The notes under the pieces were generated by a model. The model had not been told where the DNA came from, ran no database searches, and worked only from the letters and a program-made list of their open reading frames with translations. Below are positions 4,712 to 20,533 of a DNA stretch of 64,000 nucleotides, one piece after another (within the stretch, counting starts at the first letter, position 1; each line of letters opens with the position of its first letter). Position numbers and translations under genes: made by a program. Origin of the DNA: a virus; IMG/VR virus record IMGVR_UViG_3300046799_000011, positions 1 through 64,000 of that record. One strand, given 5' to 3'.

Positions 4712-6481
4712 ATGGCAGTCACGGGTGCACGTCTCAACGGAGCAGTACTTCACGTCATCAAGAACGGGATGAGCCACGACGTAAGCGCGTGTGGCCGTGT
4801 GGTCATTGCGGGCAAGGGTGAGGGCATGCGTATGTGCCGTACCTGTGTCCGTGTGAATGAGGACGCTAGGCGTATCGATGACAAGCGGCGCAAGACCTCT
4901 CGTGATGCCCGTATGGCTGCAAGCATTACGGGTGAGGAAATTCAGACTGAATTCATTTCGTGGGAATTCGATTTGACTGCATTCGAATTGGCAATGACCG
5001 AAGAAAAGATTGCCAAGATCAATGCGCGGTGTGAAAAGCGCGGTATTCCTGGTGGATTGAATGTGGAATCCCATGAGGAAACGCGTAAAGAGACGAATAT
5101 CTTCGGTGTCACAACCGAATGGATTGTATTCGCTACCCGCATTACCGGAATTGCGCCTAAGCTTCCCGACTGGGAATTCGTCGCCACCCTGGATTACGAC
5201 CAGCACGCGGGTTTGATTGTGCGCACGTATCCCGGCGTCAATTCCATTGACCGTAGCGAATTGCGTGAGGGATTCTGCGACCATTGCCAGACTGACCGTT
5301 ACCGCAAGAGCACGTATGTCATGCGGAACACAAAGACTGGCGAACAAGTCCAGGTCGGCTCATCTTGCATAAAGGACTTCACAGGCTGGACAGCACTTCC
5401 CTACACGTTCGACCGCATGGCGAGTGACGTTGAGGAATTCAGTGGTGGATTTGGTGGCGGAGCACGTGACGTAACCACACTGACCGTTCTTGGCATTGCC
5501 TGGGCTTGTGTGACTGAGTACGGCTACGTCAAGTCTCGGGACATGAACTCCACTGTGGGTTATGTGCGTGACGTACTGAATCCCCCTAAGAAGATTTCTT
5601 CCGAAGATCTTGCCGAATTGCGGCGTCTTGCCGTTCATGGTGAATCCATGGAAGGAAAGGCCAAGGAATTGCAGGCATGGATTCTGTCGGATGAATTCAG
5701 CGGTAATTCCGAATACGTCCTCAACCTGAAATCCATTATCGGTGCGAAGATGGTTTCCCCTCGCAATATGGGTATCCTTTGCTCTGCTCCGCAGGCATGG
5801 GCAAAGCACTTGGAAAAGACCTTTATCAATAAGGTCGAGAAATCAGAGAATGTCAGTGCTCATGTCGGCGAAATTGGTGAGCGCTGGGAACTGCTTCTCA
5901 AGGTCGAGTCTGAGCGCTACATTGAGACTGCCTACGGTAGTTCGACGCTTTACCGCATGAGTGACGCTAGCGGTAATGTCTTCAAGTGGTTCGCGTCGAA
6001 TGACATTCTCTCGGACTACATCGGCGAGTATGTCAGCATTGCTGCGGGCATCAAGGCTCACAATGAATGGAAGGGAGTTGACGAGACTAGTTTGACCCGC
6101 TGCAAGGTAATTGGGGATATCGAAATTCCCCGCAAAATCAAGGATGCAACCGTAAAGGCAACCTTTGAGATAAAGGTTTCGGATGCGGTAATCAACATGA
6201 ATGAGGTTTACCTCATGAATGGTGAGTACTTCCGTATTCGGACCACAAAGGGAATTGCCTACGCGGTTCGCCACACTGCGGACGGCTGGACCTACGCACA
6301 GGGATCCATTCGGCAGCTTGAGCGTATGGGCACGGTCCTTACGGCCGATGACGCTGCAAGGTTCGGACATGAGCACAAGCGGTGTGTGTACTGCCACAAG
6401 AATCTGACCGACGCTCGTTCCATGGGTGTTGGCTACGGTTCCGACTGTGCAAGCGCGCATGGTCTTCCTTGGGGTGAGTAG
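4712..6481 (+). CDS. conserved phage protein with CxxC zinc module, OB-fold-like region and C-terminal DUF6011-like zinc finger
   Basis: CDHC...QVGSSCIKDF; HVGEIGER...GNVFKWFAS; CVYCHKNLTDARSMGVGYGSDCA. Confidence 0.7.
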   Translation: MAVTGARLNGAVLHVIKNGMSHDVSACGRVVIAGKGEGMRMCRTCVRVNEDARRIDDKRRKTSRDARMAASITGEEIQTEFISWEFDLTAFELAMTEEKIAKINARCEKRGIPGGLNVESHEETRKETNIFGVTTEWIVFATRITGIAPKLPDWEFVATLDYDQHAGLIVRTYPGVNSIDRSELREGFCDHCQTDRYRKSTYVMRNTKTGEQVQVGSSCIKDFTGWTALPYTFDRMASDVEEFSGGFGGGARDVTTLTVLGIAWACVTEYGYVKSRDMNSTVGYVRDVLNPPKKISSEDLAELRRLAVHGESMEGKAKELQAWILSDEFSGNSEYVLNLKSIIGAKMVSPRNMGILCSAPQAWAKHLEKTFINKVEKSENVSAHVGEIGERWELLLKVESERYIETAYGSSTLYRMSDASGNVFKWFASNDILSDYIGEYVSIAAGIKAHNEWKGVDETSLTRCKVIGDIEIPRKIKDATVKATFEIKVSDAVINMNEVYLMNGEYFRIRTTKGIAYAVRHTADGWTYAQGSIRQLERMGTVLTADDAARFGHEHKRCVYCHKNLTDARSMGVGYGSDCASAHGLPWGE

Positions 6482-6587
6482 CAGTACCTCTAGAACGGCC
6501 CTCACGGCCCCTCTGAGCGTCTTACAGGGTGGCTGTGGGGGAGTTGTCCAACTACATCAAACGATCTTGTTAGAGGGGCGTACAGCG

Positions 6588-6971
6588 ATGCGTATCTATC
6601 GAGTGGCCAAGCCTGTAAGTGAGTCAGGGCATTTCCCTGGTGGTCCTTACGTGTACATCCCTGAGCATGACTGGGGCACCCGCAGGGATCTTAATAAAAT
6701 GATGATGGACCACAGTTCAAACCCAACACACCCCGCACCATGGCATGAAGGTCATGGGGAGATGATGCCCTCAGAGCGTTGTGGTTTCTCCGATGAGCTG
6801 CAATTGCTGGAATGGTTTGACGGATATCTGGATATGCTGGATTTCCGAGGCTTTGAAGTATATGAATACGAGGTTTACGAGGATTGTGTACACGAGTACA
6901 CATATCAAACAATATTCGATGAGCGAGACGCTGAATTTATCCGCAAATACCCGATCAATGTAAAGGTGTGA
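6588..6971 (+). CDS. hypothetical phage protein
   Basis: MRIYRV...GPY...HPAP...CGF...WF...GF. Confidence 0.65.
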   Translation: MRIYRVAKPVSESGHFPGGPYVYIPEHDWGTRRDLNKMMMDHSSNPTHPAPWHEGHGEMMPSERCGFSDELQLLEWFDGYLDMLDFRGFEVYEYEVYEDCVHEYTYQTIFDERDAEFIRKYPINVKV

Positions 6972-6978
6972 ATAAATA

Positions 6979-7386
6979 ATGTCTGAAATTGAGCGCGCTA
7001 TCTCCCTGTCAATACTTTTGGCCGAAATGATTAAGCGAGGGGAAATAACTCGCCTACTCGCAACAAAGATTTACCGTACGGCTTTTGGCACCCAATTGGC
7101 AGAAACGCTATTCATGATTGATAGCGCAATTGGAAATCTGAATGAAGGAGTTTCTCTGAAATGAGGAAATTGTTCTGGGCTATTCGTCGGAAGTGGCATA
7201 GGCCAAAGCTTGACGAGTACGGCTATTGCACTCGATGCGATTAGGAGAATAGAAATGCATTTCTTGCACAAGTGGGGTAACTGGCGTTCAATGTTTCCCT
7301 CCCTCGGTGTCAGTAGTAGTTTTCAGTATCGGGTATGCTCTGTGTGTGGCAGACAGCAGAACCGTAGGGTTACTACTAAGGGTTGA
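6979..7386 (+). CDS. three small ORFs (6979-7164, 7161-7244, 7255-7386); the last two with His/CxxC motifs
   Basis: Each downstream ORF has a GGAG RBS; HKWGNW...CSVCG. Confidence 0.5.
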
Positions 7387-7575
7387 CAGATCCTTCGGAT
7401 CCCTGTACCCTCTCTTTTATATTTAATATATATATATATATATAAGTATAAAAGAGAGAATAACTATATACTAATAAAATAATAGTAGATAGAAGAATAA
7501 AACCTTTATACTAAAAGTTTAGGTTTTATTCTTCTATCTATTTAATAATATTAATCTTCTTATATTAAGGACTAT
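7383..7575 (+). other. promoter followed by extremely AT-rich tract with inverted repeats (candidate origin)
   Basis: TTGACA-N17-TACCCT; (TA)n run; perfect 20-bp IR 7486-7505/7521-7540. Confidence 0.5.
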
Positions 7576-7582
7576 ATTTCAT

Positions 7583-8052
7583 ATGAAATATAGAAGGTGC
7601 TGGTCTGTTAGATTTGCCTTTGGCAAGTGGCACCGTTGCACTTTGAGAAACGATCACGTACTCTACAGTCGTTGGCACATGAGCCGTTCCGGCTCTCTCT
7701 GGCTAGTTGAATGGGAGAAATAGCTATGGTAGACGTTCCTTGGGTGGCTTGTCCTAAGCATATTGTCCACCATGTGGATTCTTGTGATTCTCCTGGAATT
7801 CCGGAATTCACAAAGTTTGGAAAGGTTACTACAATGCCTGGTACAAATAATGGCTCTACGGGGCCTAAGAGGCTGTCTCTCACACCCCCTGGCGTAGTTC
7901 CTCACTACTCCCTTGCTAGGCTCACACGGAGCGAGCTAGAGCTTATAGCGGGCGCTCTGTGGACTGTGGTCCATCGTGATGGTTCATGGGATGCTGAGGA
8001 TGCCTGGAAGGCTGAACAAATCCTAGACCGCATAGACACAGTGCTCCCTTAG
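7583..8052 (+). CDS. two small hypothetical ORFs (7583-7723, 7726-8052)
   Basis: Tandem ORFs with RBS-like sequences, followed by terminator. Confidence 0.5.
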
Positions 8053-8061
8053 TGATCATGA

Positions 8062-8099
8062 GAAAACCCCTGGTCAGAGATGATTCAGGGGTTTTCTTG
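8062..8099 (+). terminator. intrinsic terminator
   Basis: gaaaacccctg...caggggttttctt. Confidence 0.65.
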
Positions 8100-8108
8100 T
8101 GTCTGGGC

Positions 8109-8137
8109 TTGACCTCACTGCGGACGGCATGTAGTGT
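8109..8137 (+). promoter_or_regulatory. early HrdB-type promoter
   Basis: TTGACC-N17-TAGTGT. Confidence 0.7.
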
Positions 8138-8164
8138 TCCTCTTGTCGCCACAACGGGGCACAA

Positions 8165-8307
8165 ACTCAGGTAGTCCACTGGGAAGACAGGTAGAGCCTA
8201 GACAGTCCGAGTCTTACTCGTGCAAGCGAGAAAAGAGGGACCACGGTCGTTAGACTAGTCAAGGCTTGAATCCTAGGTATCCTGTCTACCCTGTAGATTA
8301 CCTGAGT
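8165..8307 (+). ncRNA. structured leader RNA: long closing helix enclosing a multi-way junction
   Basis: 8165-8176 pairs with 8296-8307; AGACAGG/CCTGTCT; inner hairpins including a GCAA tetraloop. Confidence 0.6.
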
Positions 8308-8346
8308 AGGATTTACTATAAAACTCAATAGTGGAAAGGAAATCCA

Positions 8347-11300
8347 ATGAGTATATTTCTCGGAATTGCTATTCCCATAGTCCTTGCGGTAATCACTGTG
8401 GTTATCGTTTGGCTTGTGGATGTCAGCAAGAGAGGTTTGTTCTAATGATGACTGCCCCGCATTTCGCTGCAATGGCGGAGATCTTCAATGCGATGTACCG
8501 TGACAGTTATGCGGTAACTGTGGGTGACGTTGCGATTCCTGGTCTGTGTAAGGCTGGGAAAGAGGCGGATTTCGTTAACTTCCGACTTATGGTGAGTGCT
8601 TCGGCAACTTACTTTGAGGAAGATAATCCCAGATTCAATCGGGATAGGTTTATCCGCGCGGTTTATCGTTAATTGTTTGAGCTTTCTACTCGGAATAACG
8701 TAGAGATTGTGTCTTTATAGTCCGAGTGGATTACTCCATCAATTAAGGAGTATAACCATGGCTGTTAAGCTCAACGAGCGTACCGGTTTCACATGTGGCA
8801 AGCGCTCGAACGGTGAACGCTGTGTTCTGTGGTCTGATGACACGTTCGAGTGGTTCGATGAGGGACAGTTCGCATATCTGTTCACTGTCTGATTGACTGA
8901 GCTTTCCGCACAGAATAACGTAAGGGTTGTGCCTTTATAGTCTGTGCGGATTACTCGATCAATGAGGGAGTAGCAAAGTGACTGTGGAAGAGCTTATTAA
9001 ACTTCTCCAGGCAGTTCCTGAATTCATGCAGAAAACGGAAATAGCTGTATTCACCGATAAAGGTGAGCGCAGCGAATTCGCCAGTAGGCAGCTTTACATA
9101 GAGAATGGCAAGTTGACCATTCCAGTACGTAGAGTCAATTAGCGCTAGGTGTCTTGCATCCTGCATACGCTGTGTGTAGGGTGTTGCTCATCTAGAGCAC
9201 TCGAAACTAGGAGTTACTGTGTTCCTTAGTGCCTTTATCGCCGATGAGAAGCTTACTGTTCACAAGAGCGGCTGCTCTCACGTTGTGCGTAACTGGCGTG
9301 AGTTTGGAGCGCCCATTGTCACCAACGCCCAGTCTCAGATGGGTCTCATGCGTCAGGTCAAGAACCTTGGTATCAGGGTTCAGAGTGTCCGTGTGATGCC
9401 GTGTGCTGGTCTTCCTGAGGGTTTCTGGAGTCACACTCCCTCGGGTCAGCCGTTGCGTCTCCTGGACACCGTTGAGGGCGCTCACAGGGCCACTAAGAGG
9501 GTTGAGCGCATAGCGCGTGCTGAGATGACTCACATCATTGACAACATGTCCCCCATGCTGCGAGAGATGTTCGGTCTGTCACGTCAGAGCTAGGTGTCTT
9601 GCATCATTCAAGACTATGTGCTTGAGTGGTGTTGTTCATCTAGAACAGACAGCAACCACTAGGAGAAAAAGTGTCTACTCCGATTGTCCTTACCGTTGAG
9701 AACGTGACTGCTGCACTGCGAGCGGCCGTTGAGGAAAAGGGTGAGGACTACGTTTACATCAATGCGAACGGGGAAATTGCCGGACAGAGTGACAACACTT
9801 TCGGCACAATGTGCAATTACGTGCACAACTTGGGTGAACCTGCCGAATGCCCTGGCTGCATTGTGGGTAATACCCTGAATCGTCTCGGCGTTTCTCTGAT
9901 TACCCTTTCTGGGTATGAGCGGCGCGGGGCACTATCTCTACTGGAAAGTCTGGCGCGTGCAGAGCTTGTCACCTATGAGGATGACTCGCTGGTGTATATC
10001 CTTGCGCGGGCACAGACCAAGCAGGATAACGGTGGTACTTGGGGTGCGGCTCTTGAGTTTGCCCTGTCTTGGGAATAGCCAAGAGATTAAACTTGGCTAT
10101 TCCTTGTTCGCCTAGAGAGGTAATAGTAATGGCACTGGAAAACTACGGCACCATTTGGGTATGTATTAACTGCCTCCATCATCATGCAAATGGTGAATGC
10201 GGAGACTGCCATTCGGACCACGGTCATGATGAAGAGCCGCTAAACGCAATTGAGTGGCCTTTCAGTGTGGCAATGGGGGGTGGTTGGGAAGAGCACAACG
10301 ACGCATGTATAGTATTCGTCATCAATGATCTTAAGCGCCGTTTTCCTGACAGGAATTGGCCGGAAGTTCCGGGCGATTATGAATGCGACTGTGAGTTTGA
10401 TTCTTTCAGCCGTTCTCCATGTGATGGCTGTAATTCCTGGCTTCATGGTGAACGGCACGCTATGACACTGTTCAAGAACAGCGAGGTATGAAATGCTGTA
10501 TTGTCCCAAAAACTGTAAGTGCTCTCATGACATTGATTGCCCTGAGCACACCGAGGCAGAGCAGCACCATGACGCATCCGACCACGTAGAAGAGCGCTAG
10601 ACAGTTTTACTCATTCATTACCTACTGAGCTTGCGGGTAGTGAGTGGGTATGACAGGCTAGAGCCAGTCAACCAGAACAAGAGGGAGTCACAAGATGCGT
10701 AAGCGTACTGAGCTTGAGATCATGGTCGCGGTTGCCAACCACCCCAAGGTGCAGGCGTACCGTAAGGCAGTCCAGATCATGCATTCCCGTATGACTGCCC
10801 TGTACGGCCCTGACTATGCTGTCGTGCAGGCTCCCAAGGACAATTATGACTACGTGGAGGGTCTGTACATGACTCCCCAGCACCAGAACCTCTTTGCCTC
10901 GCTCATGCGTGGTGCTGCTAAGGTTCGGCGTGACGTTCGTAACTCCCTTCTCGCACACTAAGAGGAATCGCAAAATGAAAATCGTAGTGGAAGATCTGGA
11001 TAAGATCATTCGACTTACGGGCACCGAGGATTCATCCGGTTTGCGTGAGGCTCTTGCTTACGTACTGGTAAGGGTATGGGATAGGGGATATAACGACGGT
11101 TGGACTGACGCAAAAGATGACGTAGAGTCTGTATCCGTCAAATGCCCTTACACACAAAGCCACACACGCGACTGGTGCGGTTATTCGGAATGCAGGGAGT
11201 CGTAGTAATGGATAAATTCCACGTTAAGTGTCATTTCGAGAATTCCGATAAGACTGTGGAGTTCTTCGGATTCAGTTTTGAAGAGCTGCAAAAAGTACTT

Positions 11301-11408
11301 CAGGCCAAGACAAAGCAGACACGCTTTGTCAATAAAGACTCTCGCGGAACATTCGTGATTGTCGATATGGCTAAGGTTACCCACATCGAAGCCGTTCCCT
11401 CATACTAA
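8347..11408 (+). CDS. early operon of small hypothetical genes: 8347-8445, 8445-8672, 8758-8892, 8978-9142, 9219-9593, 9671-10078, 10129-10491, 10695-10961, 10975-11205, 11208-11408
   Basis: Tiled co-oriented ORFs, mostly with GGAG/GAGG RBS. Confidence 0.7.
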
Positions 11409-11422
11409 GGAGAAATAGCATA

Positions 11423-12007
11423 ATGATTACTCTCGCCAAGGAAGATGGACCTGCCGATCTTACCGGGGTTACTCACCTCAGTATCGGTGTCTCATGGGAT
11501 CCTACTTCGGGATCTTCTGGTGGTCTTGCGGGTGTTCTTAAGCGTAAGCTCGGAACTGACCTGGACCTGATCGCCATTCTTTGCCAGGGTGGGGAGCCTG
11601 TGAGGCTTGCTGGGCTGGATTCCCTGGATCCTGTTGGCAACGGCGCTATCGTCCACAGTGGGGACAATCAGACCGGTAACGGTGTTGGTGATGACGAGAC
11701 TGTGACTGTTGACTTCTCTCGTGTTCCGCGCAATATCACGAGCGTTGTCTTTGTTGCTGCTGCCCACAAGAAGGGTAGCGCATTCTCTAAGGCACGAAAC
11801 GTCAGTTTCAAGGTCTATGACGCTACGGGAGGTTCTAGTCAGCAGGTGGCCGATATCTGGCCTTCTCTGATGGCTACAGGCAATGCGAATGGCGTTGCTA
11901 AGGCTGTCCGCAACGGTGATTCCTGGTCCCTTGAGGTTATCAACCACATGGGCAAGACCAAGCAGGGTGACGAAATTTCCCTCTTGCGCTTTGCCAAGGG
12001 TCTGTAG
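11423..12007 (+). CDS. terD: TerD/TerZ-family stress protein
   Basis: GVSWD...DLDL...HSGDNQTGNGVGDDETVTVDF. Confidence 0.85.
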   Translation: MITLAKEDGPADLTGVTHLSIGVSWDPTSGSSGGLAGVLKRKLGTDLDLIAILCQGGEPVRLAGLDSLDPVGNGAIVHSGDNQTGNGVGDDETVTVDFSRVPRNITSVVFVAAAHKKGSAFSKARNVSFKVYDATGGSSQQVADIWPSLMATGNANGVAKAVRNGDSWSLEVINHMGKTKQGDEISLLRFAKGL

Positions 12008-12048
12008 TACCTTCTAGACAACGCAGTACACACAGAAAAGAGCTAGAC

Positions 12049-12506
12049 ATGTTCAAGGTCACTGACTCGCACTACGTCGCCACTGTGGGCGTTCTCAAGG
12101 GCAAGGAGAAGGTAGCGTTTGGTCTTACCATTCCGCTAACTAAGCCTGCTGCTGTGGGATATATCAAGGGTCTTCCTGGTGGGCGTATAAACGGGAACTA
12201 CCGAGTCATCAAGCGTACTACTGCCCGTAAGCTCGGTCTGATCTAAGGTTCTTTACTCATCACTATCCATTTCCATTCCATGGATAGCGGTGGGTATGGA
12301 ATCCTAGAAAGGGATCCGTAATGAAATTGCCACGACTTGAAACAACAAGTAATGCCGCTCTTTCTGATCGTATGAGTTCTGTATTCGAGAATGGGTATGG
12401 AAATGAAGGGCCAGTAGCTAAAGGGTGTTGTCTGCTCCTGGCTATTGCTGTAATCCTCGTAATCCTCAGTCCTGTAATAGCAATTGGTATATGGATTGCG
12501 CTCTAG
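12049..12506 (+). CDS. two small ORFs (12049-12246 basic; 12321-12506 membrane)
   Basis: ORF track; C-terminal hydrophobic helix in the second. Confidence 0.6.
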
Positions 12507-12586
12507 TGAGTTTTAATCATTACTCAGAAATGGGTAGTGGTTATGATTTCCTAGAATGGGAGTCACCATTACAAAGGGAGAAAAAA

Positions 12587-12931
12587 GTGAACGGTAAGAC
12601 TGTTGTTGCAAGTCTTCTCGCAATTGTCCTTACCTATGGAGCTGTAGAGGGTGGTATTGCGGCATTCGACGCTACGCATCCTGAGCGCGATGTCACTGTT
12701 ACCGTTACCGATAAGGTCCGTACTGGGGGTGACAATTCAAAGTACCTGATCTTTACGGATCGCGGTACGTTTGAGAATATTGACAGCATGGTCAAGGGTA
12801 AGTACAACTCTTCCGACCTTTACGGTCAGATCAAGGTCAAGCACACCTATACGTTTCATGTCCGGGGTGTTCGCAGTGAGTTCTGGTCTATGTACCCGAA
12901 CGTTATCACTGCCAAGGAGCTTGACAAGTAA
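12587..12931 (+). CDS. membrane-anchored/secreted phage protein (DUF1523-like)
   Basis: N-terminal TM; VTVTDK...KYLIFTD.GTFENIDS...NSSDLYGQI. Confidence 0.65.
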   Translation: MNGKTVVASLLAIVLTYGAVEGGIAAFDATHPERDVTVTVTDKVRTGGDNSKYLIFTDRGTFENIDSMVKGKYNSSDLYGQIKVKHTYTFHVRGVRSEFWSMYPNVITAKELDK

Positions 12932-13002
12932 TATCTAGTGCGCTTATATCATTCTCATCTATTGGTGAGGGTGGTATTGGAATACTAGCGAAGGGCTCAG
13001 TA

Positions 13003-14242
13003 ATGAAATTCCTTGATGATGTTCCGCGAGAAGAGCGCTGTTATGTGGTATTCCGGGGAACGCCCAGTGTTTATTACATAACTGCGGATAACGGAATTGA
13101 CGCGCTTGATGCGGCCCAAGATTTGGCACGTACAAAGACTGAGAATACGGGAGAGAAGTACACAGTAATGTGTATTCCGCAAGACTGTTTGCAATTCTCT
13201 CTTACTGCCGTAAATCACGGTGTTGTATTCCACGCGACAAACAAGCTGGAAGAGGATAGCGAGTAATGTTCGAAAACTGGTATCTGTGCGTGCTGTGCAA
13301 TGACGTTATCGAAAAGCGTCAAGGTATTTGGTGGGATGAATCAAACAATGCGGTTGGATTTGGATTCCATAAGCATATTCCCACTGATCCCGAGCAGTAT
13401 TACTCCCATAAGTATGGTGGTGATATCCGCACCGAGATTCTTTATACCTGGAATCTCACCAGTAATTATGATGACTCTGTAGGCGAGACAGACACATTCG
13501 GGTATTACTCGGTGCTCTATGATTTCCATGCAATTCTGGAAGTCGATTCCGAGGGATTCGTATTCTCTTACCATTATGATTCCCGCGAGGCTACCATTAA
13601 CGCGTGGAATAACAAGGTAGACGATTACTGGGAATGGTCAAAGGAAAACGGGGAATGCCAGTGCGGTTCTGTTTCCTGTGATTACTATGAGGACAATCAA
13701 GACAGGCTCGATAAGGAGCTGGAATACGAACGTAGGGACCTAGACAGCTAGTCCGTTCTCTCGCGTCAAGCCGCTTGACTTGGCTCGGGAGTGTGCACTA
13801 GAGTCGTACCAACAGCACAACAGAGGGAGCGCGCAACATGATGGAGCGTCCTACCGGCTCATTCCTGGAGAATCGAGAGGCTTATTACGCATGGTGGGCT
13901 GAACTGGCCCGTATCGCTAAGAAGCGTTATCACGCTCTGCCTGAGGACAAGGGTATTCCCGTTCCGTATACGGCTTGCCGTACGCGTTACAAATATGTGA
14001 ACGGCGCTGGTGTCTCCGCTAGCTCACGTGTGGTGTCTCACCGCTACGCGGATGAGGGAGACAAGGGCAAGAGCCTGCGACGCGAGATCAAGCGCGTAGA
14101 ACGTGCTCAGTGGCTCTCTGAGTGGCAGGAAGAGCAAGAGAGTCAGGAAGTGTACGACACTGCCGAATGGTTCGCAGCATGGGCGTTTTGGTGGGAGGAT
14201 GACGCAACGTGCGGTAACCCGTACTGTGAAGTGTGCGAGTAA
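13003..14242 (+). CDS. hypothetical genes 13003-13266, 13266-13751 (acidic), 13838-14242
   Basis: Tiled ORFs. Confidence 0.7.
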
Positions 14243-14261
14243 AAGATCTTGAGCTAGTGGC

Positions 14262-14291
14262 TTGACAGGGTAGATGTTGGTTCGCTAACGT
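14262..14291 (+). promoter_or_regulatory. early HrdB-type promoter
   Basis: TTGACA-N18-TAACGT. Confidence 0.6.
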
Positions 14292-14339
14292 CTTCCTTGT
14301 GAGGTTCCTAACCGAGGGACTGAGGGAAAGAGGGCAGTA

Positions 14340-16364
14340 ATGGAACCGAGTGTAGTGGTTAACACAACGACGTATGACACGTTCACTGTTTCCACCATCG
14401 TTACCCGCTCGCATTTCGAGACTCGCATTTTCAGTGAGGATGGCGAGGCTATTCCTGAGGGCATAAAGACTGCTATCAAGGGTCGCCTTACGTGGACAAG
14501 CCAGGACTATGACAACGTCATAGTTGGCCAGGACCGAGAGTCTGTGGAGTCTTACTCCCACTCTGACGCCGAAGATGTGCATACGGGTATGAGTGTCCTG
14601 GTGACCCACTTCCTCAACACGCACACCCGCACAATCACTTACGTTCCGAACAAGTAGTGAGCTTGCATCGTCTGAGACTCTGTGCTTAGATGGTGCTAGC
14701 TTCCTAACAACGGGAAGCATGTACAGGAGGTAAGCAGAATGGCTGCTCGTAAGAAGACTCAGGTTCCGCCGCTGGACATTGCCAAGCTCGGTGAGATTTT
14801 CGCCAAGCTTGTTGAGTTCGGCGCGACTGAGGATTCCCCTGTCACTGTCGGTGAGATGAACGACGAAATGGCGGAAAACACTTTCGACAACCTGAATATC
14901 CTTGCCGACGCTGAGCTTATCGGTATGGGTGAGGGAACGAACGCGGGTAAGCTCTGGGTTGCCATCCCGGATGTCAGTTCCGAGAATGCTGGGGAATTCT
15001 TCAATGAGGCTTTCGCCAACATGTCGGCTGATGTTCTGATGGCACTTGGTAAGCCTGCGGAGGCACCCAAGAAGCTGACTGCCAAGGAACTGGAGTACAA
15101 GGAGCGTACGGAGTACAACGCGCGGGTTGCTGAGTCGCAGGAAGATGGAGCCCAGCACAGGCACCCCATGCCGGACGCTGTGAAGCCTGCTGAGACTCCC
15201 GTAATTGCTGCGGACGGTACGGCCGTTACGGTTCCCGTTGACCCTGAGAACGACCCTAAGGGACCGCGTAGGGAGCTTGACGCAAGCAAGGGTGAGAAGC
15301 TGATCGGTGAGGACGTGATCAAGGTCAAGGCTACGGCCAAGCCTGAGCGACTTCCTGAGATTGATGGTCTCGATCAGTTCCTTGATGACGAGACTGGTGC
15401 AATGGTCTATGAGTCTCGGATTGAGAAGGTTGGTCTCTGGCTTGATGAGCCCGAGAGTGTTCCTGCCCTTCCCGAGGGAGTCAACCCCAACACGTGGAAT
15501 GCCGCTCACACGGCCGCTACTCAGACCGCGCGGGATTGGTACCTCGCACGTGTGAAGACCCAGCAGGAAGAGCACAAGATCAACGAGGGTGCCCCCGCTC
15601 CGTTCTAGTCGAGTGAGTTAGACTCCGGTAGAAATATCGGAGTCTTTCTCTCCCAACTAGAAAGGCTATGAAAATGGCTAAGGTTATTGCTGGTGTAGTC
15701 GCTACGCTGATTCTCTGCATTCTTGTGGGAATCGTGCTGGTTGCATTCGGTAAGTTCCTGCTAGGTCTGGCATTCGTAGTCGGAATGCTGCTTATCACTG
15801 GTCTGGTAATTGCCGGTATCTTCGGTAAGAAGTTTGCGGAATTCTGGAAGTCGTTCTAATAAGTTAGTGCGCTTTAATCAGACTCCCCTTAATTGGGGAG
15901 TTTGGTTATGGTCTACTAAACAGAAAGAGACACAAATGAACGGTGTTCCTGGTCCAATAGTTGTTCTGTTCATCCTCATATTCTGCGGTTTCGGTATGTG
16001 CATGGGTTTGCTTTTTGGGGGTCAGCTAGGAAAGACAGATCAGTTCTCCAAGGACTGTAAGGCTATGGCGCATGGTGCAGTGGACAAGAGCGCTGATAGT
16101 ATCTGTGTCAAGAATGGCAAGATTCTCTTTCACCAGTAAGGTAGAGAAATGCGTGCAGTTGTCATTACCTATATGTGGTGGGGAATGCCGCGAGTAAAGG
16201 TGTTCTCTCACGAATACAAGAGGTTGACTGATGAAAGACTAGTCAAAAAGGTAAAGGGTTGGGCGCGCTGCAATATCTCTAAGCTTTATACCCCGGAGAA
16301 TTGCTCCATTACGTTTTACAGTGACATTCTCGATGTAACTACAGCGGTAAATATTCCGCTGTAA
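14340..16364 (+). CDS. hypothetical genes 14340-14657, 14739-15608 (acidic, 289 aa), 15668-15859 (membrane), 15936-16139 (membrane), 16149-16364
   Basis: Tiled ORFs with RBS. Confidence 0.7.
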
Positions 16365-16365
16365 A

Positions 16366-16407
16366 TAAGAAAGCCTCCATACCAATTAAGGTATGGAGGC
16401 TTTCTTA
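16366..16407. terminator. bidirectional terminator between the convergent early operons
   Basis: taagaaagcctccatacc-aattaa-ggtatggaggctttctta. Confidence 0.8.
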
Positions 16408-16537
16408 TTATGTACTGACTTGACAGGGACACGTCTAGAAGCTCTGTAAGCCTCTCTAACAAGATCCTTTATCGTCTTGACCTCCTAGGTCACCTTGAGG
16501 CTGTGAGGCTCTTAGAACGTCGTTCTGTACGTTCTAG

Positions 16538-17766
16538 CTACCCTCCTGCCCCCCGGTTGAACTCATGGGTATGGATGGCTATCGCTTGAATCTGCTTGCG
16601 CGCGGTTGCCTTGCTCTGTGGATGCTTGCTAAAGGTCTTGTCAGTCCCTTTATGAGCTGCCTTGTATCCTCCGCGTACTTTACGAATTTCGTAGGGCACC
16701 CTAGACTCCCTCTGTATGAGCCTGTAAGAGGCTGGCAGGAGTAGACTGGTCACTTGCTACCGTCTCACCCTTGAAGGCGCACACACCGAGCGCTAGGACC
16801 GTTGTCAACAGGGTAGTAACAGCCATACTGAGATATGTCTTTCTGTCCCATAAACCTTTTGGTTGTGGGGGGATTTGATTTGTCATTTAATTCTCCTGAA
16901 AATGAAAACAAAAAAGCCAATACCCTTAGTATATTGCTACTAAGGGTATTGGCAGTAATACTATGAAGTTCTAGAAAGAGTCAGGGGAATTGAAAGCCTC
17001 CACAGGCTCATCGTAGGTGATGGTAACGAGAGAATCCTTGTCCAGGATGAGACCCTTCTTCTCTCCACCCATCAGTTCAGCAGTAACAACGTAGTCGCCA
17101 TGGTCTTCCGCAGCATCGCTCAGCGCCCAGAAGGTGCGTCCGAGTGAATCCGTGACCAGGTCACCGGTACGGATGTTCGCGGGAGACTGGTTGTTGTACG
17201 TAGTCATTTTGTGCCTTTCTTATATTACTCACTGACTAATTGCCAGCTTTAGCCACACCCGATATTTCTATCGGATATGACTAGAACTGTCAATTCTTGA
17301 TATCGTCCTTGGCAGTGAAACCCACCGCAACAAGACTCCGAAGATCCCAAGACAGGTACACAACAGCCAGAACTGCCAGTAGCCACCAGTGAAATGGGAT
17401 GGCTACTATCAGTAGAGCCACGTCAATTGCAATTTCCGCGTAAAGAGCCTCACGCGAAGCAACCTTAGACACTTTATAGCCTTTCGTTAGTTATGTGTAC
17501 TGCATGTCATAGCGCAGATTATTAAAGTACGCTTGTCCTGTATTTACCGCAATTCGTAGACTGCTCTCATCCAAAAACATGGAGTAGTCACGTTTATTAG
17601 TAGTACTGGCTTGATGGCTTTGTAGGAACCTCAACCGAAACATTTGGTAAAGCTCGTTGGTTGAATTTATACTGCGCTTAGACTTCATCCTATTCTCTAG
17701 CGCTCTTTGTGAAATTCGCCAGTGAGCAACTAGACTACCCTCGGAGTATATCCATAGAGTATACAT
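16538..17766 (-). CDS. small hypothetical genes 16538-16699, 16701-16886, 16971-17207, 17290-17472, 17491-17766
   Basis: Tiled ORFs with RBS; terminator hairpin at 16910-16953. Confidence 0.6.
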
Positions 17767-17829
17767 GCTAGCCCTTTCCGCTAACCATAGCCACCCCCAC
17801 ATTTCTATGGGAATGACTAAAGCTATCGG

Positions 17830-18363
17830 CTAAGCCGTTGCAGTGAAGACATACATTTCATCTGCATAGTTATTCGTAGCGAAATCCCCTCGGATTTCAT
17901 CGTACGACTCTTCCCAGTCGATGCAAATCCAGGAAGGGACGTTAGCCATTTCCTCTGTACCTTCCGCGTGATCCTTGGCGAATTCCGCACCATCACGGTA
18001 TACGCCGTAATACCCTTCCTTGTAGCCATACCCATTGCGAGTACGGGTAAAGGGGGCAGAAGTCCAGCCGAAAAGCTCACCATAAGAGATGACAGCGCCC
18101 GCATTCTCGGGCTCACTCACAAGAGCCTCAAAGACAGCGGAAAACGTCTCAGCGTCTTTGATCTCAGCAAATACACTGTCCCACTTGGTAAAGATGCGCA
18201 CACCGCTGATAGTCCATCCCGCATTCTCCATACGAGTTACCAGCGACTCAACGATAGCGGAATCGTGCGACTCGTCAAGGTCAAAGGAACGCTTACGGAT
18301 ATTCGCGCCCGTTCCTTCCTGCATAGAGAAAGAAAGAAACTTGAATTCAGCACCGTAACCCAT
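17830..18363 (-). CDS. ardA: ArdA-like antirestriction protein
   Basis: Acidic; C-terminal YYGVY.D..EFA...VPSW..IDWE.....I..DF resembles ArdA domain. Confidence 0.6.
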   Translation of the reverse strand: MGYGAEFKFLSFSMQEGTGANIRKRSFDLDESHDSAIVESLVTRMENAGWTISGVRIFTKWDSVFAEIKDAETFSAVFEALVSEPENAGAVISYGELFGWTSAPFTRTRNGYGYKEGYYGVYRDGAEFAKDHAEGTEEMANVPSWICIDWEESYDEIRGDFATNNYADEMYVFTATA

Positions 18364-18443
18364 AGGATTACCCTTCTATTGCTCCCGAACGGTTTAGGGA
18401 GACATAGAAACTCTCTGATTGCCCAGAGAATCCCTAAATCGCA

Positions 18444-19030
18444 CTAATCCCGGTAAGTCAGATCAAACCATGAGCCTATGGGCCCATCATAGTGCCGGAC
18501 ATTGAATGCCCCCACCTTATCGGCGTAAGGCTTTCCGCCAAACCACTTGATCATAACCTTTGCGCCAAACAGCGCAGAGTAGTTATAGATCAAGTCGAGA
18601 AAGAGTTCTTCAGTAACAGCCTCAAAGCTATCACCCTGGAATATCTCAGGAAAGCCTACAGGCTTACCATTTTCGAATTCCTGCATTACCGCAGTAGGCA
18701 CGATTTCCCCTAGAACTTAGAGAGCGTGTACAGGAGCTGCATCAGCCAGCGGTAAACCACCTTAAGGGCTGTTGCGTCAAACAGCCAATCGGGTTCCCCT
18801 CCGCACAAGTTGATGCCCTCGCCAGTCTGGCCACGACTTATGATCGTGTCAACCAGGTTGTCAGTAACGAACTGACCGTGTGCAGTGAAATCGTAGCGCC
18901 GATCGTAGAACGACACAACATGTGTGTGATGGATGGAGTTACCGTTGTCGTCCTTCCGGTCACTGTACACTACGCGGAACGGGATTCCCTGTGATGTGAT
19001 GACATCCACCACAAACTCTACGTGAGGCAC
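18444..19030 (-). CDS. hypothetical genes 18444-18701 and 18710-19030
   Basis: ORF track; GGGAG RBS before 19030. Confidence 0.65.
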
Positions 19031-19074
19031 TGTCTTACTCCCTTCGTCTCCGCTGTGTTGCGGTGACAAGGAGA

Positions 19075-19102
19075 ACTCTACTCCCATGACGCAGGAAGTC
19101 AA
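19075..19102 (-). promoter_or_regulatory. early promoter of the leftward operon
   Basis: TTGACT-N16-TAGAGT; downstream sequence nearly identical to that of the 8109 promoter. Confidence 0.65.
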
Positions 19103-19359
19103 CTCCGCAGCTCAGAGCGCATCTAAGAGCCTCACAGACTGCCCTAGGTCCCCACGTGCTAGAGTCACCTCTCAAGCGCTCAGACAGGCGCACAGAGCTT
19201 AGGAGGGTCAGTGTTGCCAAGGTGCCCGCACTGCGGTTCAGTGAGGCTAGTCCCAAGTGAGACCAAGCCACCTAAGAAGCACAACGGCTCATGTACTGCG
19301 GAATGCCTAGTCAAGGGGAAGCTTTGCCTTAACTGTCGGATGTTCCGGGCGAACTAGTG

Positions 19360-19388
19360 TTGACAGTCTCCGATTGCTAGGATAGAGT
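19360..19388 (+). promoter_or_regulatory. HrdB-type promoter
   Basis: TTGACA-N17-TAGAGT. Confidence 0.7.
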
Positions 19389-19530
19389 CGGAGACAACAC
19401 ACGGAGCGCTTGCGCTCTAAGGGTCACGTGTCAGACCAGTTGACACCCTACGGATTCAAACCGAACCTGCCATAAAATAATTGTCCTGGAATGTCGGATT
19501 TATACCTTATATTGGGAAATAGAGGAATAA

Positions 19531-19776
19531 ATGTATTCATTGGAAGATATAGCCCGCGCTATCACCATATGGCACGATGCGAGGGACATGGTTACTTTTG
19601 AGCATGTAGCCAGCATGATGTACGACATCGAGCGGGAAGAGTTCATCAATATACTTTCAGATCTCTACCTGATTCGGGAAAAGTTCAAGCCAATCCCTTG
19701 GTACGAGCCTGGACCTACATGGAATAAGGAACGGGAAATGATGTGGGTTTGGGTTGAAGACGAACCTGAAAACTAA
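19531..19776 (+). CDS. hypothetical protein
   Basis: GAGGA RBS; followed by bidirectional terminator 19780-19822. Confidence 0.6.
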   Translation: MYSLEDIARAITIWHDARDMVTFEHVASMMYDIEREEFINILSDLYLIREKFKPIPWYEPGPTWNKEREMMWVWVEDEPEN

Positions 19777-19824
19777 ATAGAAAAGCCCTAACGGATTATT
19801 ACTATTTCCGTTAGGGCTTTTCCG

Positions 19825-20533
19825 TTAATTATCGATTTCGTCTTCTTTAGAAGTCTGGTCGGGATTTTGTGCTAATAACTGATCCCAATCTATGTCTTTA
19901 ACTGAATGCCTGGCCGCATGAAGAGCCTCAAGGAATAGGTGCAGGTATTCAAGTTCTTCCCCGCTGATTACTATGTCAATAGTATGACCAGGCTCATCAA
20001 GAGTTATGCCGATTCTATCCAGATCATAGGCAGAGAGGATAATACCGGAATCAAATTCTGCTACTAGCCCTTCCCCTTTCAGTAAGTCATCAACCATACT
20101 GTCAAATACGTCTAGTCCCTCAGACATAGCCATCTCCAAAACAATTTAGGCAATCCGCATCTTCATATCTATCCATTCCTGTACCAAAACAGGCATTGCA
20201 TTTAATCGGAAAATCTTCAAAGTTATAATTTAACAGAAATTCGGACTCATCCTCAAAGTATTTATCTGTATCAAACTCTTCAATTTCGGTATTCACGTAG
20301 TTACTCTTGTTTCCTTAACTTCTGTAGTTGAGAGTCATGGTATCCATACCAGATCCGAGTCTTAGTGGTGCAGTCATACTGTTCTTCAGCCAGTTATTCA
20401 GGGCAGTCTCAACACTACTACGAGAATAGACCTGCAAAAGCTGAGTAGATATTTTACGAATAGCGTCGGCCTTGTCTGTAACAGTAAGCTGGAGTATATC
20501 TCCCTTTACTGGTGCGACGGTAACCGTTGGCAT
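19825..20533 (-). CDS. small genes 19825-20127 (acidic), 20120-20296 (DnaJ-type zinc finger), 20315-20533
   Basis: CNACFGTG...CLNCFGDG in the hand-translated middle ORF. Confidence 0.6.

Follow-up and report, generated by a model that had tools for sequence, protein, structure and literature searches.

A long single-copy hairpin in the early-operon leader of an uncultured phage and its possible role in leader processing

The DNA analysed here (the window) comprised the first 64 kb (64,000 nt) of a virus record that is 111,669 bp long and has a direct terminal repeat of 127 bp. Promoters of the form TTGAC-N17-TAG(A/T)GT recurred in the window, and the ribonucleotide reductase of the phage shared 60% identity with its counterparts in Streptomyces phages. 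Relatives of the phage came from metagenomes that, going by their names, we take to be soil samples. Together, the promoter type, the ribonucleotide reductase and the provenance of the relatives suggest an uncultured soil phage, perhaps with an actinobacterial host. The subject of this analysis is an inverted repeat at 8165-8307 (the element), which lies among the following features:

8061-8097, + strand: intrinsic terminator of the upstream gene (7711-8052), with a perfect 12-bp stem and a U-rich tail (z = -5.2)
8109-8137, + strand: sigma-70/HrdB-type promoter (TTGACC-17 nt-TAGTGT), with a predicted transcription start near 8144-8146
8165-8191, + strand: 5' arm of the long lower stem, with pair probabilities of 0.91-1.00 and three 1x1 mismatches (C.A, U.U and A.A)
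8192-8280, + strand: interior, with a GCCUAG/CUAGGU stem, a helix at 8208-8215/8261-8268 and small hairpins at 8217-8230 and 8245-8256
8281-8307, + strand: 3' arm of the long lower stem, with ensemble lower-stem pair probabilities of 0.91-1.00
8315-8332, + strand: small hairpin, 3' of the element
8333-8342, + strand: ribosome-binding site GGAAAGGAAA, preceding the ATG at 8347
8347-8445, + strand: gene for a 32-aa hydrophobic (small membrane) peptide, the first gene after the element
8445-8672, + strand: gene F3, located after the 32-aa peptide gene and followed by further small genes

Related loci were collected through a 592-aa protein encoded 1.7 kb upstream, which gave a comparison set of nine viral loci with 42-67% identity. 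They were mostly from genomes of about 111 kb, and metagenome searching yielded none closer. The upstream 113-aa protein had strain-level variants on a 111,262-bp JGI contig and on several Logan contigs. With its perfect stem and U-rich tail, the terminator at 8061-8097 shields the element from transcription arriving from upstream. This terminator and the promoter were kept together in two relatives (L043 and L044), and the -10 box and first transcribed bases of the promoter were conserved in three (L039, L043 and L044). Across the genome, 17 sites matched TTGAC-N17-19-TA(G/C)NNT, the 8109 promoter among them. The element began about 20 nt after the predicted transcription start, ahead of the first ribosome-binding site of the operon. 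The + strand operon of small genes extended over about 8 kb and ended at a 20-bp inverted repeat (16364-16409). The promoters of the divergent operons (8109-8160; 19102-19050 on the - strand) resembled each other in the first transcribed stretch, TC(N2)C(T)TTGTC(N)CC(N)CAAC, which was also present in L039, L043 and L044.

The original prediction placed a long stem just after the 8109 promoter, and this was borne out: the element is a non-coding, sense-strand structure close to the promoter. The two arms, each of 27 nt, were 85% complementary and were separated by 89 nt. As + strand RNA, 8165-8307 folded with -65.7 kcal/mol against a shuffle mean of -41.3 (z = -6.49), and none of 200 shuffles folded as well. 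Among 3,718 windows of 143 nt sampled over both strands of the whole 111.7-kb genome, a single one did so. The other top-folding windows that we examined were GC-rich stretches, one of them a glycine-rich coding sequence, or contained an 18-bp terminator hairpin. The - strand of the element folded with -59.1 kcal/mol (z = -4.9). The + strand was thus better by 6.6 kcal/mol, which fits several G.U pairs of the sense-strand RNA. Chance does not account for the long stem, which is real. With approximately 33 bp interrupted by three 1x1 mismatches, the sense-strand stem also exceeds the two helical turns expected of an RNase III substrate.

Within this stem, the original prediction drew a CCTAG/CTAGG stem closing three hairpins, a cloverleaf-like cargo that double cleavage would release. 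Helix probabilities were taken from the thermodynamic ensemble of the full leader (8144-8360) and are predictions only. Part of the drawing held: the inner stem GCCUAG/CUAGGU (8196-8201/8273-8278) had an ensemble probability of about 0.8, and the hairpins CUCGU-GCAA-GCGAG (8217-8230, GCAA loop) and GGUC-GUUA-GACU (8245-8256, GUUA loop) had probabilities of about 0.98 and 0.95, respectively. The rest did not: the arms GUCC/GGAC and UCUU/AAGA reached about 0.2 and the hairpin UCAA-GGC-UUGA about 0.02. A competing helix, CGAGUCUU/AAGGCUUG (8208-8215/8261-8268), had a probability of about 0.78. The three-hairpin cloverleaf, with its four-way junction, was suboptimal, lying 2.6 kcal/mol above the minimum. 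Rather than a cloverleaf, the folding model favours a long rod with interruptions and a forked tip. The predicted duplex is irregular and about 33-38 bp long overall, with single mismatches and one small internal loop as its breaks, and would in principle be long enough to serve as a substrate of RNase III. Folded by itself, the 89-nt interior gave z = -2.27 and the innermost 71 nt gave z = -1.03, with 26 of 200 shuffles equally good. Since the interior alone resembles shuffled sequence, the statistical signal comes from the long stem and not from the cargo.

Structural conservation among relatives, on which the original prediction had been made to depend, was not found. In a BLAST comparison of the region with the related loci, 8165-8307 remained unmatched; the matches covered the promoter and terminator (L043 and L044) and the downstream hairpins (L038-L044). 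A single-sequence covariance model of the element (R1) detected no homolog in five complete relatives. It detected none in the remaining related loci either, where it scored one plain CTAG-type hairpin at 19 bits. Against its own genome R1 found only the element, which is therefore single-copy. Searches of GenBank phages with megablast and blastn returned no match. The stem-end pattern had 35 matches in IMG/VR, none of which aligned to the 8001-8700 region by blastn, and the degenerate arm pattern and an interior 27-mer were absent from IMG/VR. The arm pattern was likewise absent from 185,579 GTDB species genomes. A looser two-end pattern gave three matches, all of which were rejected by the covariance model. 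Since the element has no homolog in the five complete relatives or the other related loci, it receives no covariation support and is dispensable for this phage group.

The relatives differed from the phage in what lies between the promoter and the membrane-peptide gene. The features concerned were as follows:

L038:11457-11759, L039:11537-11842, L043:11707-12009 and others: gene F1, conserved in seven relatives
L042:12288-12445 (relative G005): leader after tandem promoters, with a weak multibranch domain (z = -2.9) followed by a 29-bp CTAG hairpin
L038:10755-10790, L040:10724-10760, L041:10720-10756 and L042:12176-12212: tandem early promoters with a shared spacer

Gene F1 (about 100 aa, with a WWHSPG motif) stood directly before the membrane-peptide gene and F3 in all seven relatives examined, and three relatives had additional small genes between the promoter and F1. 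F1 was absent from the genome of this phage (tblastn E > 0.2). The GGAAAGGAAA-type ribosome-binding site preceded F1 in L038-L041 and precedes the membrane-peptide gene here. An origin of the element as a remnant of F1 was considered, and was supported by neither BLAST nor tblastn. Leaders were unstructured in L038-L040 (z = -0.9 to +0.6) and only about 35 nt long in L043 and L044. The CTAG-closed hairpin of L042 (z = -7.9) was as strong as the element, unrelated to it, and occupied the same leader position, after the promoters and just before the first gene. With a structured leader in L042 and unstructured or short leaders in other relatives, strong leader hairpins recur in this phage group but are neither homologous nor essential. 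As a separate observation, the tandem early promoters of four relatives shared a nearly invariant spacer, TTGACA(N)GC(A/T)AGACAGCAAGTGCAAG, which was not seen in the 64-kb window and may be a regulator-binding site.

The absence of F1, which seven relatives have at this position, and the single-copy, orphan state of the element led us to consider that it might be a functionless relic. It would then be an inverted duplication or a MITE-like scar from the loss of genes between the promoter and the membrane-peptide gene, now a decaying palindrome. The arms look like 27-bp terminal inverted repeats with 85% identity, the interior is no more structured than shuffles, and just one of the four differences between the arms, as read from the sequence, preserves pairing. 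Correia/NEMIS-type MITEs are about 100-155 bp long, carry terminal inverted repeats of roughly 26 bp, are co-transcribed and are cut by RNase III. The element resembles them in size, in its 27-bp inverted termini and in its place inside a transcribed leader. In contrast to them, it is single-copy, has no flanking target-site duplication (again as read from the sequence), and has no dispersed copies: the arm pattern recurred neither in the phage nor in the GTDB and IMG/VR collections searched. The energetic preference for the sense strand also argues against a relic. The exact protein sequences of the two flanking genes are on record from 6 and 10 contigs, which may carry the element. On balance, a relic is possible, although we consider it unlikely.

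The proposal that the released RNA acts as a tRNA mimic or decoy was examined against known RNA families. As the original prediction had stated, no family was recognised. At the gathering threshold, Rfam gave no family in the whole window, and a scan of 8100-8360 at E <= 10 gave only two chance-level matches (CRISPR-DR41 and NEAT1_3). Neither riboswitch models nor curated cis-regulatory leader models matched. No tRNA was found by ARAGORN in the window or by cmscan of 8100-8360 at E <= 10, and the element matched neither YrlA (RF02553) nor Y RNA (RF00019) at E <= 10, so that a tRNA mimic found no backing. The same genome provided a positive control, for it carries a Ro60/Y-RNA module:

Genome 103319-104944 (L063:5320-6945), - strand: Ro60/Rsr ortholog of 541 aa, with TROVE and vWA domains
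L063:7002-7470, - strand: four tandem Y-RNA-like units directly upstream of rsr, with the common motifs CGAUGCG, UUACUUC and UUUCUAG

One of these RNAs, L063:7343-7455(-), scored 35.1 bits against YrlA, below the Rfam threshold of 69 bits, and had clean T-like and D-like arms. Phage and bacterial YrlA have been described likewise, with T-like and D-like arms and a location upstream of the Ro60 gene (PMC4201824). The rsr gene lay inside an array of roughly 28 tRNA genes. This array occupied about 99.7-109.7 kb of the genome on the - strand (L062/L063), included an 81-nt match to the tmRNA model (L063:2973-3053), and was flanked by a T4 Rnl1-type RNA ligase gene (L063:589-1626) and a C92 peptidase-like gene.

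The presence of a Ro60 ortholog raised the alternative that the element is a stand-alone stable small RNA acting in trans, excised or terminated at the stem, as a decoy or an extra Ro60/Rsr ligand. The promoter immediately upstream and the very stable, closed terminal stem would suit such an RNA. In bacterial and phage Y RNAs, the ends are paired into a long stem bearing a structured insert (PMC4201824), and the element, with its end-paired stem and branched insert, resembles them in a phage that encodes Rsr. The hexamer GUCCGA (8206-8211) is similar to GGUCCGA, the Ro-contact motif of metazoans given in PMC4201824, but a 6-mer match of this kind is expected by chance at about 3% in 143 nt. 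Compared with YrlA, the element lacks the T-arm and its loop, the D-arm and its loop, a GNCGAA-type motif and any Rfam match, and no U-tract follows its stem. It is also not adjacent to rsr, unlike the phage's own Y-like RNAs, namely the YrlA-like RNA and three tandem units: the distance, counted across the genome ends, is about 16 kb, and the element is on the opposite strand. Of the motifs of these units, CGAUGCG was absent from 8144-8330, and UUACUUC and UUUCUAG were also missing from the element. A TROVE gene was found in four of the five complete relatives, all of which lack the element. Because there is no YrlA match, no shared motif, a distance of about 16 kb and relatives with TROVE only, the Y-RNA reading is kept as a rival of low probability, and a trans-acting small RNA in general seems improbable to us.

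The operon downstream of the element was rich in further hairpins. Those closed by CTAG were intergenic and located at 9145, 9590, 10597, 12503, 12935, 13748 and 15605. Another hairpin family was present in two copies:

8669-8746 and 8889-8966: two-tier intergenic hairpin family (GCUUUC ... GGAUUAC), kept in seven relatives (L038-L044)

Across eight sequences, 17 of the 28 pairs of this family had compensatory changes, G.U pairs included. The segments GCUUUC, ACGUA, UUGNG, UAUAG and GGAUUACU were invariant. Judged by this alignment, the two-copy family is a well-supported conserved RNA element. Its covarying pairs and invariant unpaired motifs indicate that RNA structure is under selection in the operon transcript. 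The lower stem of the element had been said to have the same geometry as these hairpins. This proved to be only a visual resemblance: both have GAUUAC in the 3' strand and a stem built of 4+6 bp. A covariance model of the family (R2) scored both true copies at 94-95 bits and gave only a partial 9.9-bit match to the element (E = 0.69), which places the element outside the family. An apparent paralogy with the hairpins at 10597 and 12242 was discarded, as the words shared by eye were chance-level 9-13-mers in a short-word BLAST of the own genome.

Since the element is promoter-proximal and heads an operon of about 8 kb rich in hairpins, a cis-acting regulator of transcription was also considered, either a put-like antitermination RNA, as had been proposed, or a leader switch responding to a ligand or protein. 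HK022 put consists of two short stem-loops with no long closing stem. Like put, the element is a structured RNA near a promoter, at the start of an early operon, but it has a long closing stem, no strong terminators downstream, and no counterpart in relatives whose operon and hairpins are the same. A terminator scan of 6000-20000 found four + strand sites, all weak (5-7 pairs), and only those at 13206 and 13418 were inside the operon. No riboswitch or leader family was matched, and with a closing stem of about 33 bp that forms at a probability near 1.0, the second conformer that a switch would need is not plausible. The weak terminators, the element-free relatives and the missing conformer make a regulator highly unlikely, and the argument for a put-like antiterminator is weak.

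A role in the DNA itself, as a paired operator or roadblock, a cruciform or a single-strand initiation signal, appeared very unlikely as well. The inverted repeat is symmetric and lies beside a promoter, its - strand also folds well, and its two 27-bp sites, read from the sequence, are spaced 116 bp centre to centre, an integral distance of about 11 helical turns. Yet the genome has no further copy of the arm sequence, the sense strand has the energetic advantage, and the neighbouring hairpins of the transcript show covariation of the RNA type, including G.U pairs.

The hairpin at 8165-8307 is real and strong, and it is an orphan; a cloverleaf cargo, a tRNA mimic and an antiterminator are not supported. 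Judged by its predicted fold and by analogy, it is most likely an ordinary leader-processing hairpin of the kind found in phage leaders and intergenic regions. In T7, the RNase III site R0.3 lies between the early promoters and the first gene, and lambda has such a site in the N leader. Ribosomal RNAs are excised from long flanking stems. Like the T7 R0.3 and lambda N-leader sites, the element is a long imperfect sense-strand hairpin that separates an early, host-type promoter from the first gene, and like T7-type hairpins it is one of an intergenic series in a polycistronic transcript. In contrast to the T7 and lambda sites, it has a longer duplex tipped by a forked domain of 89 nt instead of a small loop, conservation is missing even among its own phage group, and its cleavage is only proposed.

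By this analogy, we tentatively favour a lineage-specific, cis-acting leader hairpin that serves as a site for double-stranded RNA processing or for defining a 5' end. Transcription would begin at the host-type 8109 promoter, with the leader RNA starting about 20 nt upstream of the element. The element would be the first of the intergenic hairpins that punctuate the operon and would act in cis as RNA. Its duplex could be the target of a host RNase III-type endonuclease, the nuclease being an assumption. Cleavage of the stem would then shorten the leader and set the 5' end of the message that follows, and the 90-120 nt of the upper part would come free as a by-product and not as a small RNA with a purpose of its own.

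Several lines speak for this processing role: the long and stable duplex, the better folding of the sense strand, the place of the element in the leader, the selected hairpins nearby, the leader hairpin of L042 and the textbook precedents. The place in the leader counts in its favour because a conserved terminator and promoter precede the element and the first ribosome-binding site follows it. Against it count the lack of homologs, the unstructured or short leaders of the relatives, the failure of R2 to recognise the element, and the phage genome itself, in which no gene for an RNase III or dsRBD protein was found.

If cleavage of the stem does occur, it would add an uncultured soil phage, probably of an actinobacterial host, to the known cases of leader processing of the RNase III type, which would be useful for annotation and unsurprising. 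A more consequential outcome would be a functional stable RNA of ~110-165 nt, freed by double-strand cleavage, in the slot of the conserved early protein gene F1. It might be a decoy against a host RNA-sensing defence or a non-canonical extra Ro60/Rsr ligand. We regard this as quite improbable; a stable RNA that replaces a conserved early protein would matter more, and the sole pointer to it here is where the element lies. Firmer ground in the RNA biology of this genome is offered by the covarying intergenic hairpin family and by the Ro60/Y-RNA/tRNA module.
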